From positions 1 through 52,021 of the forward strand of contig DATBLA010000162.1 of assembly GCA_036555645.1 (NCBI GenBank): a stretch of DNA of 52,021 nucleotides. Direction: 5' to 3'. The notes below the pieces were generated by a model. It had not been told where the DNA came from. It did no database searches and saw nothing but the letters and a program-made list of their open reading frames with translations. Positions 6,678 through 50,414 of the stretch are shown piece by piece (the stretch's first letter is position 1; each line of letters starts with the position of its first letter). The position numbers and the translations under genes were made by a program. The DNA is from Actinomycetota bacterium (lineage in GTDB: Bacteria > Actinomycetota > UBA4738 > HRBIN12).

Positions 6678-7163
6678 TCAGCCGGGGACGTCGCCCGGGA
6701 CCCACAGGAGACAGGTGACCCGTTCCCGCACGGCGCGAAGCGCCCGGCGGTAGCGCCGCCTCCGAAGGACCGAGCGATCGAGACCGAACACGAGCAGCCC
6801 CGGACGCACGTCGGCCACGAGCTCGACGAGGGCCTCGACCGGCCGCGGGCTCCGTACCCGGAGACGCTCCACGTGGACGCCGAGCGACCTCGCAAGGTCC
6901 GCGGAGCGCTTGAGGGAGGCCGAGACGTCGGGAGTGAGCTCGGGCAGCGTGTCGTACCCGAGCGCGATCGACATGCGAAGCGGCTCCAGCGTGGTGACGT
7001 TGGCGACCACGAGCCGCTGGCCGGACTCGACGGCCGTGTCGACGGCGAAGACCGAGGCCTCCTCGTCGAGCGGCACGCCCATCGTCGCGAGCAGCACCGG
7101 CCGCCCGCCCGCCCCCCTGCCGTTCGACAGGTCGGTCCCGCGATCCCGGGTGCGAACGCCCAT
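6678..7163 (-). CDS. Hypothetical protein, possibly a universal-stress-protein-like alpha/beta fold (start uncertain; alternative ATG at 7082)
   Basis: The only long ORF in this gap with a non-repetitive composition. No diagnostic motif was recognised. Confidence 0.4.
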   Translation of the reverse strand: MGVRTRDRGTDLSNGRGAGGRPVLLATMGVPLDEEASVFAVDTAVESGQRLVVANVTTLEPLRMSIALGYDTLPELTPDVSASLKRSADLARSLGVHVERLRVRSPRPVEALVELVADVRPGLLVFGLDRSVLRRRRYRRALRAVRERVTCLLWVPGDVPG

Positions 7164-7166
7164 GCC

Positions 7167-7550
7167 CTACTCGGGATGGAGCTGCCAGTGCGGCAGGTTC
7201 CGTGCGCGTCGGCGGACCTTCTGGCGCCAGCGCGGCATGTAGACGAGGAACCAGAACGCCATGAGCCCGAGGACGATCGGAAGGACCCGCTGGACGTCGA
7301 GGTTCGCCAGGACGATGGCCGCCCCGACGCCGAACGCGAGCGAGACCGCCACCACCTGCAACCGGTAGCGCCGCATCTCGCGCATGATGCCCCAGTACTC
7401 CTCCGCGGGGATCTGCTCGGTGTTCCAGCGCCGCGAGCAGTCCGGGCACGACCACGTCTGTCCGTACGGCACGCGCTCGACCTGACCGCAGTCGCATCGG
7501 ATCGTGATCGGGGCCCCGCGCATCGGCGGGATTGTATCCCCGGGGCGCAT
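7167..7550 (-). CDS. Zinc-ribbon membrane protein, hypothetical (alternative start at 7523)
   Basis: CDCG...CPDCSRRW four-Cys ribbon followed by two hydrophobic helices (VVAVSLAFGVGAAIVLA, VLPIVLGLMAFWFLVYM). Confidence 0.5.
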   Translation of the reverse strand: MRPGDTIPPMRGAPITIRCDCGQVERVPYGQTWSCPDCSRRWNTEQIPAEEYWGIMREMRRYRLQVVAVSLAFGVGAAIVLANLDVQRVLPIVLGLMAFWFLVYMPRWRQKVRRRARNLPHWQLHPE

Positions 7551-7630
7551 CCGCCCGCTTTGAACGCCCGAACCCCAACGTGCTATACCCCTCGCTGCCG
7601 TTCATCGGATCGCCGGGGAAGGGGGATGCC

Positions 7631-9142
7631 GTGGCTGAGGCCGTCATCGAGGAACGCCAACTCCTCAAGTCTCTGCACTGGTACGACGGGTTCGTCATCG
7701 CGCTGTGCCAACCGGCGTTCCTCCTCGGGTCGCTCGGCTTCACGCTGGCGACGATCGGCGCCTGGGGGTCGGTCCTGCTGTGGGGCATCTCCGCGACGGT
7801 CGGCCTCCTCCAGAACTTCATCTATACGGAGACCGCCACGATGTTCCCGGACAAGCCCGGCGGGATCGCGCTGTACGCGCACGAGGGATGGCGCTCGCGC
7901 TTCAACCTGTTCGGGCCGATCGCCGCGTTCGGGTACTGGATCGGCTGGTCGGTCGTGCTCTCGTTCGTTGGGAACATCGTCGGCGCGCTCGTCGTGGCCG
8001 AGTGGTTCCCCCAGTCGGGCGACGGCACCGATGACGCGTTCTTCAACCTCGGGTTCGCCGACTTCGGCCTCGCTCAGCTCATCGCCATCGTGGTGATCCT
8101 CGCGGTCTGGGCGTTCAACGTGCTCGGGGTCAAACCCTCGCTCGCGGTCGGCTACGTCACCGGCGCGTTGCTGATGGTGCCGCTGTTCATCTTCATCGTC
8201 ATGCCGTACATCACGGGCGACTGGTCCAGCTCGAACCTCGAGTACGTCCACAACGCCGGCGACCCGTCCCTCGGATTCAGCGACCTGTCGGTGGCCTTGA
8301 TGTGGCTGTTCATCATGTGTTGGTCCGCCTACGGGATCGAGGTCTGCGCGACCTTCGCGCCCGAGTACCACGACACGAAGCGCGACACCGCGAAGGCCCT
8401 GAAGAGCGCCGCGGCGTTCTCGCTGTTCGTGTACATCTTCCTGCCGCTCGGCCTGGGCGGCGTCGTCGGCTCGACGGGTGACTACGGCAGCTTCTACGTC
8501 GCGGCACTCGAGGAGATCGCCGGGCCGGTGGTCGGCGGGTTCGCCGTGGTGTGCCTCATCGGGAGCTTGATCCTGGCGATGAACACCGCCACGGCCGACG
8601 GGGGCCGCGCGCTCTACGGGATCGCTCGCGACGACATGACGATCAAGTGGTTCTTCCACCTGAACCGGTTCCACGTGCCGGCCCGTGGGATGACCGTCGA
8701 CATGGTCGTGAACCTCGGATTGCTCGTCCTCCTGGGCGCGAACAACTTCGTGATCCTGTACATCTCGAACATCGGGTACGTGTTCTGTCACGTCCTCGCG
8801 CTCACTGGGTTCCTGTTGCTCCGGCGCGATCGTCCCCAGTGGCCGCGCCCGATCAAGGTGGGCGGGGCGTGGTTGCCGATCGCCGGCCTGCTCGCCCTGT
8901 TCAACCTCATCCTGGTGCTCTATGGCGTGTTCGATCAGGACCTGGCCGCGTACATCGGCTTCTACGAGTTCACCGGTCTGCCGCTGTTCCTCGGTCTGGG
9001 CGTGCTCGTCGCGTCGGTGCTCCTGTACTTCTACCGGCGCGTGGTCCAGGACAAGGAGAAGATCACCTTCCGCGATCGCGACGTGTCGACGATGCCGAAC
9101 GAGGAGCAGATGGCGCTCCTCCGCGAGGAGTCGATGGCCTAG
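7631..9142 (+). CDS. APC-superfamily amino acid / amine permease
   Basis: GTG 7631 is preceded by GGAAGGGGGA. About 12 hydrophobic segments. The N-terminal LHWYDGFVIALCQP and the overall pattern fit the amino acid/polyamine/organocation family. Confidence 0.8.
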   Translation: MAEAVIEERQLLKSLHWYDGFVIALCQPAFLLGSLGFTLATIGAWGSVLLWGISATVGLLQNFIYTETATMFPDKPGGIALYAHEGWRSRFNLFGPIAAFGYWIGWSVVLSFVGNIVGALVVAEWFPQSGDGTDDAFFNLGFADFGLAQLIAIVVILAVWAFNVLGVKPSLAVGYVTGALLMVPLFIFIVMPYITGDWSSSNLEYVHNAGDPSLGFSDLSVALMWLFIMCWSAYGIEVCATFAPEYHDTKRDTAKALKSAAAFSLFVYIFLPLGLGGVVGSTGDYGSFYVAALEEIAGPVVGGFAVVCLIGSLILAMNTATADGGRALYGIARDDMTIKWFFHLNRFHVPARGMTVDMVVNLGLLVLLGANNFVILYISNIGYVFCHVLALTGFLLLRRDRPQWPRPIKVGGAWLPIAGLLALFNLILVLYGVFDQDLAAYIGFYEFTGLPLFLGLGVLVASVLLYFYRRVVQDKEKITFRDRDVSTMPNEEQMALLREESMA

Positions 9143-9197: not shown

Positions 9198-9275
9198 GCC
9201 GTTCGCGCCGCGTTGCTCGCCCGAAGTCCCCGAAACTAGGATGTGGGCCCGCGAGGGCCACCTTTGGAGGACGCG

Positions 9276-10679
9276 ATGTCGGAGAAGATGTGGGGCTCGG
9301 AGCCGTTCTGGGGTCTCGGCTACGACTGGGACCCGGACTGGGTCTACACCGATCGGCAGAAGGAGCTCCGCGCGACGCTCATCGAGCTCTGCGAGCAGGA
9401 GCTGCGCGCCAACTCGAAGCGCTTCGACGACGAGCTCATGTTCCCCCGGCGGAACCTCGAGCTCCTGGGTGAGCACGGGTTCCTCGCGCTCACCGTCCCC
9501 GAGGCGTACGGCGGTCTGGGCGAGGACCACGTCGCCTACTCGATGGTGTGCGAGACGATCGCCCGGTACGGATGCGCGTCGACGGCGATGTGCTACGTCA
9601 TGCACATCGGGGCCGTGAACGCGATCATGCTCCGAGAGACGCCGGAGCTGATCGACAAGTACATCCGGCCGCTGAACTCGGGCAAGATCGGGACGCTGTC
9701 CTACTCGGACCCGGAGACCGGCTCGCACTTCTGGTACCCGGTCTCCTCGGGTGCCGAACGCTCGAACGGCGGCTACAAGGTCCGCAAGAAGGCGTCGTGG
9801 ACGACCTCGGCGGGGTTCGCCGACTTCTACGTGGTCCAGACGACGAGCCCGGACTTCTCTGGCTACGACGACCTGTCCGTGTTCGTCGTCGACGGCGACC
9901 AGGTCCAGTCGCAGCCGTCGCTGTGGGACGCCCTCGGCCTTCGAGGCAACCAGTCGGGGCCGCTCGAGGTGCCGAACGTGGACGTTCCCGCCGAGCAGAT
10001 CGTCGGGCCGGAGGGCGACGGGGCGAACTCGAACGACGAGTCCGTCGACCCGTGGTTCCTCATCGGCTCGTCGTCGGTGTGGAACGGCCTCGCGCTCGGG
10101 GCGATCGACATCGCCAAGCGCCACACGACGCGCAAGAAGCACGTCGACGTCGGCCTGCGGGTGGCCGACTACCCCACGATCCAGGACTACGTGGGCGAGG
10201 CGCTCATGGACACGAACGCGTGCCGGCTCTTCGTCCTGTCGGTCGCGCAGGCGATGGACCGCGAGACCGACGGCAACACGCGCAACCCCGAGCCCGGCGG
10301 CCTCGCTCGCGGCAACTACCTCCACTGGGCGTGGCAGATCAAGTTCGAGGCGGCCAAGAACGTCGCCCACGTGGTCGACAAGATGCTCCACGCCTGCGGC
10401 GGATCGGGCTACAAGCGCGACATGGAGCTCGAGCGCTACCTGCGCGACGCCAAGGCCGGCTGGGTCATGGGGCCGACGAACGAGGTCCTCCGCCAGTTCG
10501 TCGGGAAGGCCGTCCTGCTCGGGTTCGAGTCGCTCGACTACTGGAACCAGTCGTACAACCGGCGGGCCGTCGAGAACGAGGTGAAGAAGCTCGACGCGGC
10601 CGGCAAGCGCGAGCTCGCCGAGCAGCTGATGTCCGAGGCCGCGGAGCAGGAGCCGAAGGAACCGGCGAAGAAGGGCTAG
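9276..10679 (+). CDS. Acyl-CoA dehydrogenase-fold flavoprotein; probably not a classical ACAD (oxidase or two-component monooxygenase type possible)
   Basis: ATG 9276 follows GGAGGA. ACAD-like N-terminal, middle and C-terminal regions are visible (GFLALTVPEAYGGLG, SYSDPETGSHFW, RYLRDAKAGWVMGPTNEVLRQ). Where MCAD-type enzymes have IYEGTNEI, this protein reads VMGPTNEV, so the catalytic Glu appears replaced by Gly (alignment by eye). Confidence 0.8.
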   Translation: MSEKMWGSEPFWGLGYDWDPDWVYTDRQKELRATLIELCEQELRANSKRFDDELMFPRRNLELLGEHGFLALTVPEAYGGLGEDHVAYSMVCETIARYGCASTAMCYVMHIGAVNAIMLRETPELIDKYIRPLNSGKIGTLSYSDPETGSHFWYPVSSGAERSNGGYKVRKKASWTTSAGFADFYVVQTTSPDFSGYDDLSVFVVDGDQVQSQPSLWDALGLRGNQSGPLEVPNVDVPAEQIVGPEGDGANSNDESVDPWFLIGSSSVWNGLALGAIDIAKRHTTRKKHVDVGLRVADYPTIQDYVGEALMDTNACRLFVLSVAQAMDRETDGNTRNPEPGGLARGNYLHWAWQIKFEAAKNVAHVVDKMLHACGGSGYKRDMELERYLRDAKAGWVMGPTNEVLRQFVGKAVLLGFESLDYWNQSYNRRAVENEVKKLDAAGKRELAEQLMSEAAEQEPKEPAKKG

Positions 10680-10683
10680 ACGG

Positions 10684-13020
10684 ATGCAGGTGGGCGGCGG
10701 GCCCTCGAAGCTCCTGGTCGGCGGACTGCGCCCGGCCGATCCCACGTTCGAGCAGTACTGGGTGCGGCCCGGCGGGGCGACGGTGCTGGCGCTCGAGGCC
10801 GAGGACCGGTTCACCGTGATCGACGTCGACGGCGGTCAGGTTGCGGAGATCTCGGCCCTCGGACCGGACGGCTCGGACGCGGCCGAGGCGATCGGCGCCC
10901 GAGCCGACGCGGCGGCGACGGTGCTGCGATCGCTCGTGACCTCCGCCGCCGAGGGCTCGCAGGACGTCGTCCACGATCTCGCCGCCCGCGGGCTCGACCC
11001 GTCCCGGGCAGAGGCCATCCGCGTGTTCGACCAGTGGTCCCGACCCGGATCCGAACAGTCGTTCCGAACGGACCGCGAGGTCGTCCTCGTCGTGGCCGCC
11101 CCGGCGGGGCGCCTCGTCGACGGTGCCCCCCCGCCGAGCGATCTCGTCGTCGAGGTGCATCGTGCCCGCCCGCGATCACCCGGGGAGATCGAGCTCCCTC
11201 CACCGCTCGCCGAACCGCGTCTGGACTTCCGCATCGACCGGTCGACCGCGCGCAGCTACGAGGTGAAGGCGGGCGAGTTCATCCAGATCATCGACGTCGA
11301 GGGCAAGCAGTGCTCGGACTTCCTCGCGTTCCATCGCCGCAAGCTCGACGACGGGATCGAGCGCGGCCTGGACTCCACCGTCACGCGCACGCTCATGGGC
11401 AGCGCGTACCCGATGCCGGGACTGTTCGGCAAGTTCTACGACGCCGACCTGGACCCGCTCGTCGAGGTGGTCCGGGACACGGTGGGGCGGCACGACACGT
11501 TCGGACTCGCTTGCAACGCAAAGTACTACGAGGACATGGGCTACCCCGGGCACGTGAACTGCACCGACAACTTCAACGGCGCGCTCCTCGTGTACGAGAT
11601 CGCCAAGCGCAAGGGCTGGCCGGCGCTCAACCTGTTCTTCAACACGGCGTTCAACGCCGAGAACGTGCTCGTCTCGGACGAGCCGTGGTCCCGGCCGGGC
11701 GACTACGTGCTGTTCCGGGCGATGACCGGCCTCGTGTGCGCCTCGTCCGCATGCCCGGACGACATCGACCCGGCGAACGCGTGGAACCCCACCGACGTCC
11801 ACGTGCGCGTCTACTCGCCGGAGCACCGGTTCAGCGCCGCGATCGCCCACCGCGTCACCCCGGAGGCGCGACCCGTGCTCACCGACAGGACCGGGTTCCA
11901 CCCGAAGGTCGAGGCGCTCACGCGCAACCTCGTCGAGTACAACGGCTACTGGCTCCCGTCCCACTTCTCCAACGAGGGGGCGATCGCCGAGTACTGGGCG
12001 TGCCGCGAGCACGCGGTGATCATCGACCTGTCGCCCCTTCGCAAGTTCGAGGTCCTCGGGCCGGACGCCGAGTCGCTCATCCAGGCCACGATCACCCGCG
12101 ACGCCCGGCGGGTGTCGGTGGGGCAGGTCACGTACACGGCGATGTGCAACGAGGCCGGCGGGATGATCGACGACGCCACGGTCTTCCGCCTCGCGCAGGA
12201 CAATTTCCGGTTCGTGGGCGGCGACGACTACGACGGCGTGTGGCTGAAGGAGCAGGCCGAGGCCCGGGACCTGAACGTGTGGGTCAAGCCCTCGACCCAC
12301 CAGCTGCACAACGTGGCCGTCCAGGGTCCGGCGAGCCGAGGGATCCTCCGCGAGGTCGTGTGGACGGCCCCGTCGCAGCCCTCGCTCGATGAGCTCGGGT
12401 GGTTCCGCTTCCTGGTCGGACGGGTCCGGGCGACCGACGGCATCCCGATCGTCGTGTCCCGGACCGGGTACACGGGCGAGCTGGGCTACGAGGTGTGGTG
12501 CCATCCCGACGACGCCGAGGCCGTGTGGGACGCCATCTGGGAGGCCGGCGAGGGCCGCGGTCTCACGCCGATGGGCCTGGACGCCCTCGACATCGTGCGG
12601 ATCGAGGCCGGGCTCATCGTGGCCGGCAACGAGTTCGACCAGCAGGTCGATCCGTTCGAGGCCGGCATCGGGTTCACGGTCGACCTGCGCACCGACGAGG
12701 CGTTCGTCGGGCGTTCGGCGCTGGAAGGACGCAAGGAGCATCCGCAGCGCGTGCTCGTGGGGCTCGACGTCGACGGCAACGAGACGCCCGGCCACGGCGA
12801 TCCCGTGTTCGTCGGCCGTCAGGAGATCGGCGTGGTGACCTCGGGCACGCGCTCACCGGTCCTGAAGCGGACGATCGCGCTCGCGCGGGTCGCGGTCGGG
12901 TTCTCCGAGCTCGGGACGCCGGTCGAGATCGGCCAGCTCGACGGGCTCCAGAAACGGATCGCCGCGAGGGTCGTCCGATTCCCCTTCTACGACCCCGAGA
13001 AGACCCGGCCGAGGTCCTGA
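10684..13020 (+). CDS. Fusion protein: degenerate DUF1989-like segment plus canonical DUF1989 (urea-carboxylase-associated / CgdAB-like) domain plus C-terminal aminomethyltransferase (GcvT) fold
   Basis: 778 aa. Residues ~190-400 carry YEVKAGEFIQIIDVEGKQCSDFLAF, GRHDTFGLACN, NLFFNTAF and GDYVLFRAMTGLVCASSACPDD (DUF1989 pattern as I recall it). Residues ~30-190 repeat only the opening motif (RFTVIDVDGGQVAEISAL) and end like a DUF1989 (SDLVVEVHR). Residues ~420-778 carry GcvT motifs (VIIDLSPLRKFEVLGPDA, SRTGYTGELGYEVW, RFPFYDPEKTRPRS). Confidence 0.8.
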   Translation: MQVGGGPSKLLVGGLRPADPTFEQYWVRPGGATVLALEAEDRFTVIDVDGGQVAEISALGPDGSDAAEAIGARADAAATVLRSLVTSAAEGSQDVVHDLAARGLDPSRAEAIRVFDQWSRPGSEQSFRTDREVVLVVAAPAGRLVDGAPPPSDLVVEVHRARPRSPGEIELPPPLAEPRLDFRIDRSTARSYEVKAGEFIQIIDVEGKQCSDFLAFHRRKLDDGIERGLDSTVTRTLMGSAYPMPGLFGKFYDADLDPLVEVVRDTVGRHDTFGLACNAKYYEDMGYPGHVNCTDNFNGALLVYEIAKRKGWPALNLFFNTAFNAENVLVSDEPWSRPGDYVLFRAMTGLVCASSACPDDIDPANAWNPTDVHVRVYSPEHRFSAAIAHRVTPEARPVLTDRTGFHPKVEALTRNLVEYNGYWLPSHFSNEGAIAEYWACREHAVIIDLSPLRKFEVLGPDAESLIQATITRDARRVSVGQVTYTAMCNEAGGMIDDATVFRLAQDNFRFVGGDDYDGVWLKEQAEARDLNVWVKPSTHQLHNVAVQGPASRGILREVVWTAPSQPSLDELGWFRFLVGRVRATDGIPIVVSRTGYTGELGYEVWCHPDDAEAVWDAIWEAGEGRGLTPMGLDALDIVRIEAGLIVAGNEFDQQVDPFEAGIGFTVDLRTDEAFVGRSALEGRKEHPQRVLVGLDVDGNETPGHGDPVFVGRQEIGVVTSGTRSPVLKRTIALARVAVGFSELGTPVEIGQLDGLQKRIAARVVRFPFYDPEKTRPRS

Positions 13021-13024
13021 TCGC

Positions 13025-13897
13025 GTGGCCGAGGCCATCGAACGGTTCACCGACGACCAGGTCGCCTCCTTCCACCGGGACGGGTTCCTCATCGTCGAGG
13101 AGGGACTGGTCGGCGATCGCGCGCTCGAACGCCTTCGCGAACGCTATCTGCCGCTGTTCGACGGCGAGTACGAGACCGGCATCAGGCCCGACGAGGTGAA
13201 CTGGGTGAAGGGTCGCGACCCCGAGGACCGCACGCGCCAGCTCTGCAACGCGTGGAAGTCCGACACGGTGATCGCCGCCCAGGTGCTCTCGGCCAGGATC
13301 GGGCGGCTGGCCGCGCAGCTGATGGGCTACGACGGCGTTCGGATCCTGCAGGACAACGTGCTGTGGAAGCCGCCGGGAACGAAGGCGATCGGCTTCCACC
13401 AGGATGGGTCCTACGCCGACTACCTGGTGCCGCCCGAGATGATCACGTGCTGGATGAGCCTGCACGAGACGGCGGCCGACGCCGGTCCGATCGCGTACGT
13501 GCGCGGCTCGAACCACTGGGGGGTCGCCCCACCCTCGCGGGCCCAGTTCCACGCGCCCGAGGACTGGCTCGCCGGCGTCCGCGACGCACAGCCGGCGGCG
13601 GTGACCGAGCTCGAGGTCGTGCCCGTCGTCGTGAAGGCCGGCGGCGGCGCCTTCCACCACAACGCCACGTGGCACGGCTCCGAGCCCAACCGCAGCGGGA
13701 CCGTCGCGCGGATGGCGCTCGTCTCGCACATGCTGCCGTCGGACGCGCGGTTCCACGAGACGAACGTCGACGTGAACTACTCGCGGTACCGCCGGCGCGA
13801 CGATCCGTCCATGGACGAGTCGTTCTTCCCGGTGATGTGCCGTCGCGACGGCTACCGGACGCCCTGGCTGGCCGACCTCCCCGACATCGACGCCTGA
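13025..13897 (+). CDS. Phytanoyl-CoA dioxygenase (PhyH) family Fe(II)/2-oxoglutarate-dependent oxygenase
   Basis: 290 aa with FHRDGFLIVE, HxD motif (IGFHQDGSY) and distal His (ATWHGSEPNRS). GTG start lies 4 nt after the upstream stop. Confidence 0.85.
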   Translation: MAEAIERFTDDQVASFHRDGFLIVEEGLVGDRALERLRERYLPLFDGEYETGIRPDEVNWVKGRDPEDRTRQLCNAWKSDTVIAAQVLSARIGRLAAQLMGYDGVRILQDNVLWKPPGTKAIGFHQDGSYADYLVPPEMITCWMSLHETAADAGPIAYVRGSNHWGVAPPSRAQFHAPEDWLAGVRDAQPAAVTELEVVPVVVKAGGGAFHHNATWHGSEPNRSGTVARMALVSHMLPSDARFHETNVDVNYSRYRRRDDPSMDESFFPVMCRRDGYRTPWLADLPDIDA

Positions 13898-13910: not shown

Positions 13911-14891
13911 CTACGGGCCGCGGATCCGGCCCGCGAGCACCTCGAGGACCCGCCACGCGAGATCGGGTTCGGCACGCAGGGCCTGTTTCACGGTGTCCCT
14001 GGAGAGCGCGATCACCCGCAGCTGGGTCTCGGCGACGACGTCGGCCGTCCGCGGGCGGCCGTCGAGCATCGCCACCTCCCCGAAGAACTGCCCCGGTCCG
14101 AGACGGGCCACATCCCGCCCGTCCCGAACGACGCGGGCCCGGCCATTGAGGATCACGAACGCCTCACCCCCGCGCTCGCCCTGCCGGATCACCGTCTCGC
14201 CCGCCTCGTGGCCGTGCTCCTCCCCGGCGGACAGCAACCGCTCACGCATCGCGGGGGGCAGGGCCCCGAGGATCGAGCCCTCGGGCGCGGAGAGCGCCTC
14301 GTAGTGGCCGCCGTGGAACAGCAGGGGGTTGCCGCGTCCGTATCGGGCGTACTCGACGTGCGCGAGGAACAGCGAGTGGTCGCCGCCCCAGTACGACCGC
14401 GCGACCCGGGCCACGAGGTGCGCGAGCGCCCCCTCGACGAGCGGCGTCTCGCGGACGACCTCGAAGCTCGGCTCCGCGCCCGATTCGCCCGGGCGTCCGG
14501 CGAACCGATCCGAGAGCGCCTCCTGCTCCTCGGAGAGGACGCTGATCCCGAAGCGCTTGCCCTCGTTCAGCAACGCGTGCATCCGCGCGCGGTTGTCGAC
14601 CGAGATGAGCACGAGCGGCGGACGGAGCGAGACCGACATGAAGGCGTTCGCGGTCATGCCGTGCACCTGATCCTGTGCCGTCGTCGTGATCACCGTGACG
14701 CCGGTGGCGAACATCCCGAGCGTTCGACGGAAGGCGAGGACCGGATCCTCGCCCTCCTCCCCCTCGATCTGCAGCTCGTCGGCGGGCGGTGACTCCTCCC
14801 ACGCTCCGGAGGCGAGCGCCTCCGCGGCCCACACGGGGAAGGCGCCCACCGGAAGATCGAACTCGACCGGCGCGTCCTGCGGCCGGCTCAC
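13911..14891 (-). CDS. Flavin reductase domain fused to a C-terminal cyclic-nucleotide-binding domain
   Basis: The N-terminal half has FRRTLGMFATGVTVITT...HGMTANAFMSVSLRPPLVLISV (flavin reductase-like FMN-binding fold). The C-terminal half has GPGQFFGEVAMLDGRPRTADVVA (cNMP-binding phosphate-binding cassette). GTG start lies 3 nt after the upstream stop. Confidence 0.8.
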   Translation of the reverse strand: MSRPQDAPVEFDLPVGAFPVWAAEALASGAWEESPPADELQIEGEEGEDPVLAFRRTLGMFATGVTVITTTAQDQVHGMTANAFMSVSLRPPLVLISVDNRARMHALLNEGKRFGISVLSEEQEALSDRFAGRPGESGAEPSFEVVRETPLVEGALAHLVARVARSYWGGDHSLFLAHVEYARYGRGNPLLFHGGHYEALSAPEGSILGALPPAMRERLLSAGEEHGHEAGETVIRQGERGGEAFVILNGRARVVRDGRDVARLGPGQFFGEVAMLDGRPRTADVVAETQLRVIALSRDTVKQALRAEPDLAWRVLEVLAGRIRGP

Positions 14892-14894
14892 CGC

Positions 14895-16232
14895 TCAGCT
14901 CCAGGGGAACGGCGAGTGACTCACCGGGTGGAGCCTGCCCTGCGCGTATCGCGAGAACCGGAACGGCTCGAGGAGCGCCTGGGGCTCGCCGAGCACCTCG
15001 CGGGCCACGAGCGCGCCGACGCCGATCATCTTGTACCCGTGGTTCGAGTCCGCGATCACGTGCACGTTCTCGTGGAACCGGTCGAACACCGGGAAGCTGT
15101 CGGGCGTGAACGCCCCGATCCCGCCGGTCGGCGCCCGGCGATAGAGAGGACGCTTGCCCTCGAATCGTTTGTGGCAGTGCGCGAGCGCCGAGGTCCACAT
15201 CCGCTCGAACGCCTCCCCCACGACGAACTGCGTGCTGTCCGGACCGTACGGGTCCACGGCGACCTCGTCGGCGGGCAGCTCGACCACCCACGGCATCGCC
15301 CCGCCCTGCACCCCGCCGAAGTTGAAGTCGGGCTTGTAGTAGATGCCCCACAGCTCCTCGGTGACGAGCGAGCCGTCCGCATCGTCCAGGAGCGGCGCGT
15401 CGGTGTCGACGTGGACGACGGGCGGGAGGTTGCCCTCGTTGTCGAGCAGATACGTCGGATCGACGCCGAGCGTGCCCTCGACGAGACACCAGTACGTCCA
15501 CATGGGGCGCTCGTAGACGGCGCCGTCTCGTCCCTTGACCGGCACGACGGCCGGGAGGTCGAGCATGTGCCAGAAGTCCCGGACCCACGGGCCCGCCGCG
15601 ACGACGACCTGCTCGCACGCGATCACGCCCTGATCGGTCCGGACCGCCGTCACCGCGCCGCCGTCGATGTCGAACCCGGTGACGCTGACCGGGGCGAACA
15701 TGCGGACCCCGAGCGCCTCGCCCTTTCCGCGGAGCCCCACCATCGACGGCTGGCTCTCCGCGTAGCCGCCCTTGCGCTCGTGCAGGACGACCGTGATGTT
15801 GCGGGCCTGCCAGTCGGAGAAGATCGACTCCATGTACGTCCGGCACTCGTCCTCGCCCTCGATGAGGTCCGACGGGTAGCCGATCGCCCGTTGCTCCTCG
15901 TGGATCGTGACGACGTCCTCGTGCATGACCTCGGGCGCGATCTGGAGGTACCCCACCGGGTGGTAGTGGAAGGCCGCCGGATCCGACTCCCAGACCTCGA
16001 CCGAGTGCGCCATGAGCTCGCGCATCGCCGGCTGGAAGTAGTTGTTGCGGATGACGCCGCACGCGAGACCGGACGGGCCCGCCCCCACGCCGGTCTTGTC
16101 GAGCACGATGACGTCCTCGCCCGAGCCGGTCCCGCGGGCCCGCAGCCCCTCGGCCAGGTGCCAGGACGCGGACAGGCCGTGGACGCCGGCGCCGATGACC
16201 ACGACGCGCGCGCTCGTGGGGAGACTCGTCAC
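14895..16232 (-). CDS. FAD-dependent oxidoreductase, SoxB/DAO-like (second paralogue in the window, no partner subunits adjacent)
   Basis: GTG 16232 forms a GTGA overlap with the VOC gene stop. Contains ARVVVIGAGVHGLSASWHLA, GVIRNNYFQP and C-terminal SNHGYKMIGVG, collinear by eye with SoxB at 1676..2890. Confidence 0.8.
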   Translation of the reverse strand: MTSLPTSARVVVIGAGVHGLSASWHLAEGLRARGTGSGEDVIVLDKTGVGAGPSGLACGVIRNNYFQPAMRELMAHSVEVWESDPAAFHYHPVGYLQIAPEVMHEDVVTIHEEQRAIGYPSDLIEGEDECRTYMESIFSDWQARNITVVLHERKGGYAESQPSMVGLRGKGEALGVRMFAPVSVTGFDIDGGAVTAVRTDQGVIACEQVVVAAGPWVRDFWHMLDLPAVVPVKGRDGAVYERPMWTYWCLVEGTLGVDPTYLLDNEGNLPPVVHVDTDAPLLDDADGSLVTEELWGIYYKPDFNFGGVQGGAMPWVVELPADEVAVDPYGPDSTQFVVGEAFERMWTSALAHCHKRFEGKRPLYRRAPTGGIGAFTPDSFPVFDRFHENVHVIADSNHGYKMIGVGALVAREVLGEPQALLEPFRFSRYAQGRLHPVSHSPFPWS

Positions 16233-16597
16233 ACGCTCTGCCCCCGGGCGTCGCACACGCAGAACAGGGTCCCGTGGGGCGCCGTCATCGTCGTCCACGC
16301 GCCGCCGCCGCGGTCGCGCTCGTCGACGCGCCAGGCCACGGTCGCTCCGAGCCCCTCCAGCCGGCGGACCTCGGCGTCGGGGTCGTCGACACGCAGGTCG
16401 AGGTGCACGGGTGTCTTGCCGGGGGCGACCGCGTCCACGCGCTGGATGAGCACGGGCGGACCCGCCCCGCTCCTGGGCCCGAGCACGATGTACGGATCCC
16501 GCTCGTACCGGCGCCCGTAGCCGAGCGCCTCGGACCAGAACGCCGCGGCGTCGTCGGCCTCGACGGCGTCGATCACGATCTCCAGGGAGGCCGTCAC
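16229..16597 (-). CDS. VOC (glyoxalase/bleomycin-resistance/dioxygenase) family protein
   Basis: 122 aa from GTG 16597 (GTGA overlap with the upstream stop). FWSEALGY...VHLDLRVDD...GGAWTTMTAPHGTLFCV resembles single-module VOC proteins. Confidence 0.65.
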   Translation of the reverse strand: MTASLEIVIDAVEADDAAAFWSEALGYGRRYERDPYIVLGPRSGAGPPVLIQRVDAVAPGKTPVHLDLRVDDPDAEVRRLEGLGATVAWRVDERDRGGGAWTTMTAPHGTLFCVCDARGQSV

Positions 16598-17379
16598 GGT
16601 ACCCCCGCGGTCGCGAGGCGATCGTCCGCGCGGCGCGTGCACGCCCGCACGAAGTCCCGCCAGATCTCCAGCATCCGGTCGTCCTGCTGCCACTCCTCGT
16701 GGAGCTCCCACTGAACGCCGAGGACGAACGACGGCGCGCCGGGCATCTCGATCGCCTCGACGACGCCGTGGGCCGCCCACGCGACCGGCTCGATCCCTTC
16801 GCCCGGCCGATCGATCGCCTGGTGGTGGTAGCTGTCGACGTCGGTGCGGCCCCCGAGGCGCGACCCGAGGAAGGAGCCGGGCTTCACGTCGATCGGATGC
16901 GTCGGGTGCGGGGGGCGCTCCCGGCCCTCGAGGGTGGCGGCGACGAGCGCTCGCCACTCGTCCCACTTCGCCCCGGGGTGTCCGCCGCCCGGGAACTCGT
17001 CCAGGTCGCCGAACAGGCTCCCGCCGAAGGCGACGTTGAGGATTTGACACCCCCGACACACGCCGAGCACCGGCACGCCGCTTCCCACGGCGAGGCGCGC
17101 GTAGTGCAGCTCGATCTCGTCGAGCACGGGCGCGGGATCGCCCTGGAGCGGATGTGGATCCTCCCGGCCGTATCTCCACGCTTCGATGTCGCGGCCGCCG
17201 GCGAGCACGAGGCCGTCGAGCCGTTCGATGAGCTCGACGCGATCGTCCTGCTGCTCGTAGTACGGGAGCAGCAGCGGCAACGCCCCCGCGGCGAGCAGCG
17301 GGCGCGAATACCCGAAGCCGTAGTAGTCGCCGTAGTCCGCCAGCCCCTCCGAGATGCCGACGAGCGGACGGGAGGACAC
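16594..17379 (-). CDS. Class-I glutamine amidotransferase-like gamma-glutamyl hydrolase (peptidase C26, PuuD-like)
   Basis: GVCRGCQILNVAFGG (nucleophile Cys) and SYHHQAI (His) are present. GTG 17379 has ACGGAG upstream. The N-terminal part of the 292-aa ORF overlaps the upstream gene. Confidence 0.8.
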   Translation of the reverse strand: MSSRPLVGISEGLADYGDYYGFGYSRPLLAAGALPLLLPYYEQQDDRVELIERLDGLVLAGGRDIEAWRYGREDPHPLQGDPAPVLDEIELHYARLAVGSGVPVLGVCRGCQILNVAFGGSLFGDLDEFPGGGHPGAKWDEWRALVAATLEGRERPPHPTHPIDVKPGSFLGSRLGGRTDVDSYHHQAIDRPGEGIEPVAWAAHGVVEAIEMPGAPSFVLGVQWELHEEWQQDDRMLEIWRDFVRACTRRADDRLATAGVP

Positions 17380-48231: not shown

Positions 48232-48359
48232 AGCGAACCGGGGCGCGCCATCGCCGACTCGGGCTTCGGCGCGATAGTCTCCCGGACCCGCCCGGCGAAC
48301 ACCTGCGCCAGCCGAACACGCGCCGGGCGATGGCGCCCCGACCACGGAGCCGATCGCCG

Positions 48360-49382
48360 ATGGCCTACCGCCGCATCGTCCTGGCGACCGACGGATCACC
48401 GTCGGCCGAGACCGCCGAACGCGTCGCCGCGTCCCTGGCGACCGCCACGAAGGGCTCGCTCGCGATCGTCCACGCCTACGTGGACGCCGGTCGCGCGCCG
48501 TCCGCGGTCGAGCGCGCCGCCGGGATCGCCGACGAGCAGGGCGTCCGGCACGAGGAGGAGCTCTCCCCGGACGATCCCGCCGAGGCGATCATCCACGTCG
48601 CCGAGCACCGGGACGCGGAGGTCATCGTGACCGGCAGTCGGGGGTTGTTCCGCGGCGAGCAGCTCATCGGGAGCGTGGTCCGAAAGGTCGTGACGCACGC
48701 TCCGTGCGACGTCCTGCTGACCCGGAGCCGGACCGCGACGGTCAACGCTCGCGGCGGCCCGCCCTACCGGCGGATCCTTCTCGCCACCGACGGATCGGCG
48801 ACCGCCGACCGGGCCGCGCGCAAGGCCTACGCGCTCGCCGCGCGGCTCGAGGCGTCCCTCACGCTCGCGTTCGTCGGCCACCCGAAGACCGGCGAGCTCG
48901 TCCTGGCGGACACGGCCGCCACGATCGGAGAGGGCGCGCAGGTGGGCATGCTCATCCTCGACGGCGATCCCGCCGAGCAGATCGTGGGCACGGCCGAGCA
49001 CGAGGGGTTCGACCTGGTCGTCGTCGGCAATCGGGGCATGTCGGGGGCGAAGGCGGCGGTCCTGGGCTCGGTGCCTCGCGACATCGCCGAGCTCTGCCCG
49101 TGCGACGTGCTCGTCGCCCGCACGATCGCCCAGAGCCTGTCCGAGATCGGCCCGGGCGAGGGAGGCATCGTGGCGACCGGCGACCACAGGGTCGCGGTCT
49201 ACCGCGCGACGGACGGCACCGTGACCACCCTGTCGGCCAAGTGCACCCACATGGGATGCGTCGTGAAGTGGAACCCGACCGAGCGCACGTGGGACTGCCC
49301 GTGCCACGGGTCCCGGTTCGGACCCACGGGGGCCGTGGTGAACGGGCCGGCCGAACGCCCGCTGGCTCCCACCGACCTCTGA
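48360..49382 (+). CDS. Tandem universal stress protein domains fused to a C-terminal Rieske [2Fe-2S] domain
   Basis: Two USP modules (YRRIVLATDGS...VTGSRG...VVRKVVTHAPCDVLL; YRRILLATDGS...VVGNRGMSG...CPCDVLV), then CTHMGC-(16)-CPCHGSRF. Confidence 0.8.
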   Translation: MAYRRIVLATDGSPSAETAERVAASLATATKGSLAIVHAYVDAGRAPSAVERAAGIADEQGVRHEEELSPDDPAEAIIHVAEHRDAEVIVTGSRGLFRGEQLIGSVVRKVVTHAPCDVLLTRSRTATVNARGGPPYRRILLATDGSATADRAARKAYALAARLEASLTLAFVGHPKTGELVLADTAATIGEGAQVGMLILDGDPAEQIVGTAEHEGFDLVVVGNRGMSGAKAAVLGSVPRDIAELCPCDVLVARTIAQSLSEIGPGEGGIVATGDHRVAVYRATDGTVTTLSAKCTHMGCVVKWNPTERTWDCPCHGSRFGPTGAVVNGPAERPLAPTDL

Positions 49383-49392
49383 GGGCGACTCG

Positions 49393-49884
49393 CTACAGGA
49401 CCTGGAACGGCTTGAAGATCATGAGCCAGGTGATGACCGCGAGCACCGCGAGACCGACGACCGTGTTCCAGGCGGCCATCCTCGAGCGAAGGATCTCGTC
49501 GAGCTCCTCGTCGCTTCGCCTCGGCACGCCGGAGGGACGAACCTCCACGGCCTCCTTCACCCGCTGGTAGTACGGACGGGCGACGAGCGTCATCTCGACC
49601 GACACGGCGACGAGCAGCCCCACCGAGATCCAGAACCACCCGTCGTTCCACCACAGGCCCTGGATCCCGGCCACGACGCCGAACGCGATGAGCCACAGCA
49701 GCGAGACGTACATCCCGCGCACCGACGCTCCGGAGAACTGGAGAAGCGAGGCGATCCGCCCGCGGTCGCGTTCGGTGCGCAGTCGCAGCCCGGCGAACAT
49801 CGAGACCCCGTGGAACATCACGAAGGCGATGACGCCGAGGACGTGCAGGAACTTCCACCAGGAGTACACGTTCACGCCGAGCAT
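49393..49884 (-). CDS. Integral membrane protein (about 4 TM helices), hypothetical
   Basis: The ATG shares one base with the upstream TGA (TGATG). Hydrophobic helices are visible. The upstream part of the 350-aa ORF is Arg-rich noise. Confidence 0.6.
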   Translation of the reverse strand: MLGVNVYSWWKFLHVLGVIAFVMFHGVSMFAGLRLRTERDRGRIASLLQFSGASVRGMYVSLLWLIAFGVVAGIQGLWWNDGWFWISVGLLVAVSVEMTLVARPYYQRVKEAVEVRPSGVPRRSDEELDEILRSRMAAWNTVVGLAVLAVITWLMIFKPFQVL

Positions 49885-50414
49885 CACGTGCTGAGCGAAC
49901 GCCGTTCTGCATCGCGCAGCCGGCGGGCCACGACCTCCAGGATCTTCGAGGCGACGCCCGGCTCCTGGGACACCACCTTGTCGAACGAGCGCTTGAACAC
50001 CCGCACCGCGACGACGGGCGTTTCCGCGATGACGGTCGCGGTCCGCGGACCGCCGTCCAGGAGCGAGATCTCCCCGAAGAACTCCCCCGGTCCGAGGCGC
50101 CCGATCGCGCGACCGTTGCGGACCACCCGCGCTTCCCCTTCCAGGAGGACGTAGAACGTCCCGCCACGGCTCCCGGTCTCGACGATCACCTCTTTCGCGC
50201 GGAACGAGACCTGGTCGGCGTGCTCCGCGATCTGCTTGAGATGCCGCTTCGACAACCCGGCGAACAGCGGCACGTCGGCGAGCAGCTCGACGCCCCGCCG
50301 CCCGAGCGGGCGGTCGGATCTCGGCTCCTGGGCCCGAGACCGCTCGCGCACCCCGGCGGTCGCGATCACCGACGGCACGACGCCGGCGAGCGGTTGGATC
50401 GGTTCCTTCGGCAC
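49884..50414 (-). CDS. Cyclic-nucleotide-binding domain protein without a recognisable DNA-binding domain
   Basis: LADVPLFAGLSKRHL...GPGEFFGEISLLDGGPRTATVIA. 176 aa, GTG start. Confidence 0.8.
   Translation of the reverse strand: MPKEPIQPLAGVVPSVIATAGVRERSRAQEPRSDRPLGRRGVELLADVPLFAGLSKRHLKQIAEHADQVSFRAKEVIVETGSRGGTFYVLLEGEARVVRNGRAIGRLGPGEFFGEISLLDGGPRTATVIAETPVVAVRVFKRSFDKVVSQEPGVASKILEVVARRLRDAERRSLST

Follow-up and report, generated by a model that had tools for sequence, protein, structure and literature searches.

A conserved fusion of a flavin reductase with a cyclic-nucleotide-binding domain in uncultured soil actinobacteria, possibly linking cyclic AMP to methylated-amine catabolism

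We analysed a 52,021-nt stretch of DNA from an Actinomycetota bacterium (GTDB lineage UBA4738; HRBIN12), namely positions 1 to 52,021 of contig DATBLA010000162.1 of assembly GCA_036555645.1 and hereafter called the window, which carries at 13911..14891 on the minus strand a gene encoding a flavin reductase fused to a cyclic nucleotide monophosphate (cNMP)-binding domain. The gene runs uninterrupted for 326 codons plus a stop, and the GC contents of its third and second codon positions (0.92 and 0.49, respectively) match those of real genes in this window of 70% GC. Its GTG start codon, with a GGAG 7 nt upstream, lies 3 nt past the stop codon of a translationally coupled DAO/SoxB-like FAD oxidoreductase gene (14895..16298, minus strand; PF01266, 111 bits), and its own stop codon is separated by 13 nt from that of a convergent PhyH-family gene. 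A scan for promoters and terminators between 13500 and 16700 found none. The product can be divided into an N-terminal extension (residues 1-50; 14742..14891), a flavin reductase domain of the HpaC/PheA2/StyB type (residues 51-203; 14283..14741), and a short linker followed by a CAP/PKA-type cNMP-binding domain, the sensor (residues 204-326; 13914..14282), which contains the phosphate-binding cassette FFGEVAMLDGRPRTADVVA (residues 269-287; 14031..14087), all on the minus strand.

The fusion is real rather than an assembly or frameshift artefact, since two-domain orthologues of about 325 aa fill the 120 best clusters at 90% identity, all of them with both Pfam domains and all from Actinomycetota/Thermoleophilia metagenome-assembled genomes (MAGs) or metagenomes; the total number of fusion clusters at this identity exceeds 120. 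Where these orthologues are named at all, they carry only the label "flavin reductase", and our literature searches found no paper describing a flavin reductase-cNMP fusion. Clustering at 50% identity leaves about three intact fused representatives (the window's own, P0122 and P0127), and the family is therefore compact. Four more distant representatives that had appeared to be fused (P0160, P0264, P0195 and P0180) showed only partial or broken Pfam matches, look like error-laden gene calls and were not counted as independent architectures. In the ESM Atlas, the four clusters with this domain pair all belong to Actinomycetota. As a separate lead only, one actinobacterial cluster there (67 members; score 0.76) joins cNMP_binding to PNPOx_N, which we take to be another FMN-binding split-barrel fold. 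The architecture is thus widely conserved in common soil actinobacteria. The earlier note had said that its reading would be refuted if the architecture proved common and already characterised; it is common (51 of 294 genomes, more than 120 clusters) but uncharacterised. Purifying selection acts on each of the three parts of the protein: in 12 pairwise comparisons of orthologues, the ratio of nonsynonymous to synonymous substitution rates (dN/dS) lay at 0.04-0.14 in the reductase domain, at 0.08-0.33 in the sensor and at 0.09-0.46 in the N-terminal extension.

The reductase half matches PF01613 (Flavin_Reduct) over residues 59-200 at 125.2 bits (cut-off 27), an alignment that spans positions 2-152 of the 153-position profile. 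A phmmer search of PDB sequences retrieved PheA2 (1RZ0) with an E-value of 1.2e-33, and in this alignment the HGMTANAFMSVSL and GDH.LF motifs of the two proteins coincide. In the residue-by-residue alignment, both PheA2 core motifs, HGMTANAFMSVSL.P and GDH.LF, are present, and F84, V87, S88, P91, P92, G170, D171 and H172 are invariant in 58 sequences. An AlphaFold2 (AF2) model of the fusion protein, built on the alignment of these 58 sequences, gives this domain predicted local distance difference test (pLDDT) values of 85-96, and its FMN-binding split-barrel fold superimposes on solved reductases: Foldseek matched 1rz0 (TMt 0.86), 4f07 (0.83), 2ecr (0.81) and also 4hx6, the single-domain reductases scoring 0.71-0.86 and the roughly 300-residue 5zc2 and 5zyr scoring 0.42-0.44. 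The proteins recovered in this way (PheA2, StyB, SgcE6, HPAH C1, HpaC, BorF, NtaB and DszD) all serve two-component monooxygenases as the reductase partner. On the strength of its profile match, fold and motifs, we assign the N-terminal domain to the HpaC/PheA2/StyB-type PF01613 reductases, and it looks intact as a catalyst. However, the best NCBIfam matches of this half, namely HpaC_Thermus (130.7 bits against a cut-off of 200), StyB (129.4 against 200), HPAH C1 (100.9 against 340), FerA (99 bits) and HsaB, all lie below their equivalog cut-offs, which places the fusion protein, as judged from these profiles, outside every named reductase equivalog (HpaC, StyB, HPAH C1, HsaB, RutF and FerA). 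It is the sole PF01613 protein in its own genome (2.47 Mb, 92% complete).

The sensor half matches PF00027 (cNMP_binding) over residues 229-306 with 72.3 bits against a cut-off of 27.5. It is modelled with pLDDT values of 89-97 and ends in a conserved C-helix (R322, R324), and Foldseek matched it to the CRP of Mycobacterium tuberculosis (3d0s) with a root-mean-square deviation of 2.5 over 125 columns. Its best matches are true cAMP/cGMP binders, namely PKG, PKA RI-alpha and M. tuberculosis CRP; the NCBIfam matches are CRP, the mycobacterial Pat acetyltransferase (34 bits) and similar families. Profile, fold and cassette together identify it as a canonical CAP/PKA-type cNMP-binding domain. In the window the phosphate-binding cassette has the form FGE-x8-RTA (FGE...RPRTA), and Gly271, Glu272, Arg281 and Ala283 of the nucleotide-binding loop do not vary in any of the 48 intact fused orthologues. 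These orthologues show two types of cassette: type 1, to which the window belongs, reads FFGE[VI]AxxDGRPR[ST]AD, and type 2, found in Gaiellaceae-type orthologues (L023-L052, L080, L081, L087 and L088), reads LIGEIEVLDPGGGR[IM]AD, in which the Glu and Arg are kept, a hydrophobic residue takes the place of Ser/Thr282 and one residue is inserted. No helix-turn-helix (HTH) family matched the fusion protein, whose chain stops at residue 326 right after the C-helix, and the CRP model NF008732 covers it only over model positions 17-130 of 214. Because no C-terminal HTH follows the cNMP domain, an identity as a CRP/FNR transcription factor is ruled out. The fusion of the two domains and the completeness of the cNMP cassette, both proposed in the earlier note, are therefore upheld, with both Pfam scores (125 and 72 bits) above their cut-offs and the canonical loop residues in place; so is the stand-alone paralogue of the sensor that the note had placed at 49884..50414 (minus strand), a 176-aa cNMP-binding protein with 75 bits for PF00027 and 44% identity to residues 222-324 of the fusion.

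The AF2 model as a whole has a mean pLDDT of 84.6 and consists of two well-folded domains, mostly above 85, which are joined by a linker of about 5-10 residues (about 65 at residues 200-210) and preceded by the N-terminal extension (50-60). The extension contains the motifs P8-x-E10-F11 and D49-P50 and also an acidic stretch. It is found in none of the solved HpaC/PheA2 reductases and is present in both the fused orthologues and the shorter, sensor-less ones described below, with query residues 8-200 matched. As a side observation, it may be a docking peptide for an oxygenase or for the trimethylamine N-oxide (TMAO) demethylase encoded nearby.

To place the fusion among its relatives, we scanned one genome per species and obtained 80 loci, which comprise 48 intact fused genes, seven frameshifted fused genes and 25 short forms of about 200 aa. 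The seven frameshifted genes had looked like short forms and are probably assembly errors; one of the 25 short forms (L059) is truncated by the end of its contig. The sensor-less orthologues are 58-66% identical to the fusion protein over residues 8-200, N-terminal extension included, stop directly after the ...LLFHGGRYERLG motif, and have no cNMP domain within 10 kb. A tree built from the reductase domain groups 21 short forms in one clade (SH-aLRT 96), that of the Solirubrobacterales/Thermoleophilaceae-type MAGs, and the fused forms are the remainder, from Gaiellales-type MAGs and the window's lineage. In a tree of the sensor, the reductase-attached domains split with a support of 99 from six stand-alone cNMP proteins of the same genome, a topology consistent with a single fusion event. 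Judging from these sister-lineage orthologues, the sensor is an accessory to the reductase. A 411-aa metagenomic protein (P0231) shows another route by which the Flavin_Reduct fold is coupled to signalling: it resembles a histidine kinase but begins with a flavin-reductase-like domain (Flavin_Reduct + GAF + HisKA_3).

The genes around the fusion identify its context, by annotation, as a TMAO/methylamine catabolic island. A plus-strand operon, on which the fusion gene converges, consists of an APC-family permease related to the TMAO permease (7532..9142; AA_permease_2, with 205 bits for NF053774, below its cut-off of 690), a flavoprotein of the acyl-CoA dehydrogenase (ACAD) fold (9243..10679), the TMAO demethylase Tdm (10684..13020; DUF1989 + GcvT, 1177 bits for NF053776 against a cut-off of 1100), and a PhyH-family Fe(II)/2-oxoglutarate dioxygenase (13025..13897; PF05721, 84 bits) that is syntenic in most loci. 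On the minus strand, genes for a GmaS-like ligase, MgsA, MgsC, a C26 gamma-glutamyl hydrolase, a Glyoxalase_6 (VOC) protein (16229..16600; PF18029, 92 bits) and the DAO/SoxB-like oxidase are followed by the fusion gene, and SoxD- and SoxA-like genes lie further upstream. A search of the genome for Tmm/FMO returned nothing convincing, only one partial match of 26 bits. The ACAD-fold protein, our proposed oxygenase partner, has the N, M and C domains of Pfam Acyl-CoA_dh and bears N- and C-terminal extensions; its true start is probably the ATG at 9276, because orthologues align from about residue 9-12. The catalytic Glu of the YEG motif is replaced in it (VMGPT versus the canonical IYEGT), and its weaker NCBIfam matches include SfnB, HsaA, DszC and HPAH-C2. 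Beside the permease, a universal stress protein (USP) gene (6678-7163) is kept in many fused and sensor-less loci (L011-L087). Because some mycobacterial USPs bind cAMP (PMC11107214), this gene might tie the island to cAMP in a second way.

The genes regularly found beside the reductase in the 80 loci are those for the ACAD-fold protein and Tdm, not the one for the SoxB-like oxidase. In 68 loci an ACAD orthologue is no more than 8.7 kb away, and 11 of the remaining 12 are short or cut contigs. Identities across loci are 79-97% for the ACAD-fold protein, about 60-76% for Tdm and 50-66% for the reductase. In six of 20 sensor-less loci, the ACAD, Tdm and reductase genes follow in that order on one strand, whereas in the fused loci with an ACAD gene the fusion gene is on the opposite strand in all 47, placed either behind the DAO gene, as in the window, or behind the permease, as in the Gaiellaceae type. 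All fused lineages thus have separate transcripts for the reductase and the proposed oxygenase, a setting in which, as a speculation, post-translational control may be of help. The DAO gene itself is unlinked in most sensor-less loci and on the opposite strand in type 2 loci, and we rejected the SoxB-like oxidase as the partner of the reductase because its linkage is not conserved. The claim that the gene sits where two flavoenzyme-rich operons converge is therefore correct as to convergence, as the 13-nt gap to the PhyH stop attests, but needs amending as to context, which is the TMAO/methylamine island with ACAD and Tdm, and not the SoxB-like gene, as the constant partners.

The same association appears when genomes rather than loci are counted. 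Among 294 genomes sampled from the window's class, in which related genomes are not independent, the reductase fusion occurs in 51 and the ACAD-fold gene in 52: both are present in 48, only the reductase in three, only the ACAD in four, and neither in 239. Three unpublished genomes are part of these counts, G152 and G234 with both genes and G160 with the reductase alone; leaving them out gives 46, 2 and 4 for the first three classes. Two of the seven discordant genomes are artefacts, the ACAD gene being frameshifted in G238 and a contig ending within Tdm in G046. The one genuine orphan is in G116, a genome from the window's own genus that has lost the island between the VOC gene and fdhD: no ACAD gene was found in it, and the fusion gene stands alone (L089:9510-10487) with a homologue of the window's VOC gene directly upstream. 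The G116 sensor is 83% identical to that of the window, compared with 68-71% for other congeners, whereas its reductase domain is only 61% identical, a figure that is 75-94% for all orthologues linked to an ACAD gene; the Pfam score of this domain falls to 78 bits from 125. These comparisons indicate that the reductase domain evolves much faster after the loss of ACAD and Tdm, as is expected if the constraint on it comes from the ACAD-Tdm partnership. The G116 orphan may reflect neofunctionalisation or decay of the reductase half; two metagenomic relatives (P0063 and P0066) repeat its pattern of a diverged reductase and a kept sensor.

The genome is rich in cyclic-nucleotide machinery. Its 2.47 Mb encode 26 class III adenylate/guanylate cyclase domains, many of them in proteins of more than 1000 aa (contigs with such domains include C14, C167 and C187), and about 17 cNMP-domain matches. 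The latter include an M50 site-2 protease that carries two cNMP domains (L008:1426-3027) and no fewer than six stand-alone cNMP proteins, 138-195 aa in length. The general statement that such domains are normally attached to HTH, kinase or channel modules needs amending: most cNMP domains of this genome are stand-alone proteins, and enzyme fusions have a precedent in MtPat (PMC8556138). About 500 nt from the stand-alone cNMP gene at 49884-50414, the window also encodes a 350-aa protein (48330-49382) with tandem Usp domains and a C-terminal Rieske [2Fe-2S] domain.

Considering these results together, we regard, with no more than moderate confidence, the fusion protein as the reductase component of a two-component flavin monooxygenase that would be allosterically gated by cAMP and would have the ACAD-fold protein as its oxygenase partner. 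Two-component monooxygenases of the ACAD fold form an established class (PMC6165268). The enzymatic activity, the oxygenase partner and its substrate, the nucleotide bound and the direction of regulation are parts of the following scheme that we infer. Using NAD(P)H, the reductase domain would convert free FMN or FAD to the reduced form and hand this to the protein encoded at 9243-10679, which would act as an oxygenase of the group D type in what is probably an amine N-oxygenation or demethylation, such as trimethylamine (TMA) to TMAO or dimethylamine (DMA) to methylamine. The CAP/PKA-type domain is presumed to have joined the C-terminus of the reductase in the window's lineage and its Gaiellales-type relatives. 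Binding of cAMP could then shift the B/C helices of the sensor and so change how NAD(P)H or flavin reaches the neighbouring reductase, which is probably a dimer. The likely effect, by analogy with known cases, would be a relief of autoinhibition. The cell would thereby confine the production of reduced flavin, a costly compound that gives rise to H2O2, to times when its cAMP state calls for the use of methylated amines. Direct second-messenger gating of the reduced-flavin supply seems to us the most plausible reading of the domain pair because the binding-loop residues are invariant, the sensor has dN/dS values of 0.08-0.33 and the genome encodes 26 cyclase domains; the mechanism is made plausible by the documented cases of the HPAH C1 reductase and the mycobacterial cAMP-regulated GNAT Pat.

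Several observations weigh against this proposal, and some of them also favour other explanations. The sensor-less orthologues function in the same island and show that the pathway works without a sensor, and 32 Gaiellaceae-type orthologues have Ile, Met or Leu in place of the Ser/Thr following the loop Arg, so that the affinity, identity or preference for the ligand may differ between type 2 orthologues and the window's type. Both would also be accounted for if the cNMP-fold module had left cyclic-nucleotide signalling and now served to dimerise or stabilise the protein, or bound another ligand such as a pathway metabolite, the reductase being constitutive or metabolite-regulated; CRP/FNR-type domains can indeed bind haem, 2-oxoglutarate or aromatic acids. 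We consider this unlikely, however, given that Glu272 and Arg281, the residues for contacts with the ribose 2'-OH and the cyclic phosphate, are invariant together with Gly271 and Ala283 in 48 of 48 sequences, that the sensor scores best against PKG, PKA RI-alpha and M. tuberculosis CRP, and that the genome invests heavily in cyclases. As to how gating might be transmitted, the AF2 model has a predicted template modelling score (pTM) of 0.57, at which the relative orientation of the domains is unreliable, and we make no claim about an interface.

The assignment of the partner has its own difficulties. The ACAD-fold protein is nearer to FadE16-type acyl-CoA dehydrogenases (220 bits) than to group D monooxygenases (38-63 bits), and some true ACADs also have no Glu at the position of the replaced catalytic residue. 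Furthermore, ACAD and Tdm are always located together, so synteny fits Tdm equally well and cannot tell which of the two is the partner. The reductase might instead be a flavin-mediated ferric reductase or a redox-repair enzyme that keeps iron in the reduced state in Tdm or PhyH, or it might assist the DAO/SoxB-like enzyme, with whose gene it is translationally coupled in the window; its 99-bit match to FerA, a flavin reductase that also reduces ferric complexes, would suit such a role. Nevertheless, the closest solved homologues all serve two-component monooxygenases, a candidate ACAD-fold oxygenase of the group D type is at hand, and DAO-family enzymes hold their own FAD, apart from the inconstant linkage of the DAO gene described above, and we therefore think this explanation quite improbable. 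A further possibility is that the fusion is a signalling protein instead of a metabolic enzyme, in which the reductase-like domain senses flavin or redox state, the cNMP domain integrates cAMP, and the protein acts by contact with other proteins. Flavin_Reduct does occur elsewhere as an apparent sensor module, as in P0231, and the G116 gene is still intact although its reductase domain has diverged. Yet the protein lacks an HTH, a kinase or any other module that could serve as its output, its reductase domain is conserved at 75-94% in all cases with an ACAD (dN/dS 0.04-0.14), and the GDH and SxSxxPP motifs common to PheA2 are invariant, which makes a purely signalling role very hard to credit.

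Returning to the cAMP-gated reductase, a further step that we offer only tentatively, and with more doubt than confidence, is that the reductase and the ACAD-fold protein constitute an unrecognised amine monooxygenase replacing Tmm and/or Dmm in Thermoleophilia-type soil actinobacteria, where it would oxidise TMA or DMA and bring methylated-amine oxidation under direct post-translational cAMP control, and that the fusion is the first cyclic-nucleotide-switched two-component reductase. Because free reduced flavin is costly and toxic, the means by which two-component monooxygenases hold their reductases in check are of current interest, and to our knowledge the sole known restraint is the substrate-relieved autoinhibition of HPAH C1. 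If our reading is right, a cAMP-type sensor on the reductase would be a second, signal-driven way to restrain it, and a redox enzyme would join the short list of bacterial enzymes under direct cAMP control. The fusion also draws attention to the strongly conserved but so far uncharacterised ACAD-fold enzyme encoded next to a TMAO demethylase. Its carriers are abundant uncultured soil actinobacteria, with many MAGs from soil and other environments, and the present genome has no convincing Tmm. Characterising the reductase-ACAD pair could fill a gap in the cycling of methylated amines (C1/N) in soil. The sensor-bearing and sensor-less orthologues would provide a natural control pair.

Among the systems with which the fusion can be compared, its sensor-less orthologues share its ACAD-Tdm neighbourhood but have no cNMP domain. 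The solved reductases PheA2 (1RZ0), StyB/SMOB (4F07), HpaC (2ECR) and SgcE6 (4HX6) share its fold and motifs with E-values of 1e-33 to 1e-25; they are stand-alone proteins of about 150-190 aa that supply reduced flavin to a separate oxygenase, and they have neither the 50-residue extension nor the sensor, whereas the fusion has both. A likeness of another kind is found in the mycobacterial lysine acetyltransferase MtPat/MsPat (Rv0998/MSMEG_5458), likewise an actinobacterial enzyme joined directly to a cNMP domain, in which cAMP activates the enzyme post-translationally through a large rearrangement that lifts autoinhibition (PMC8556138). There, however, the enzyme is a GNAT with an N-terminal sensor, whereas here it is a flavin reductase with a C-terminal one, and the two proteins have no homology outside the sensor. 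A parallel in layout is the HPAH C1 reductase of Acinetobacter baumannii (5ZC2/5ZYR), which shares the HpaC-type domain (37-38% identity over about 160 columns; its model NF045919 matches the fusion only over positions 8-158 of 309), partners the ACAD-fold oxygenase C2, and, like the fusion, has its reductase domain followed in the same chain by a C-terminal ligand-binding regulatory domain, in that case one we take to be MarR-like. That domain is autoinhibitory, and binding of HPA, the pathway substrate, activates flavin reduction (PMC10816480). In the fusion the regulatory domain is instead of the CAP/PKA type, and the signal would be a global second messenger rather than the substrate of the pathway.

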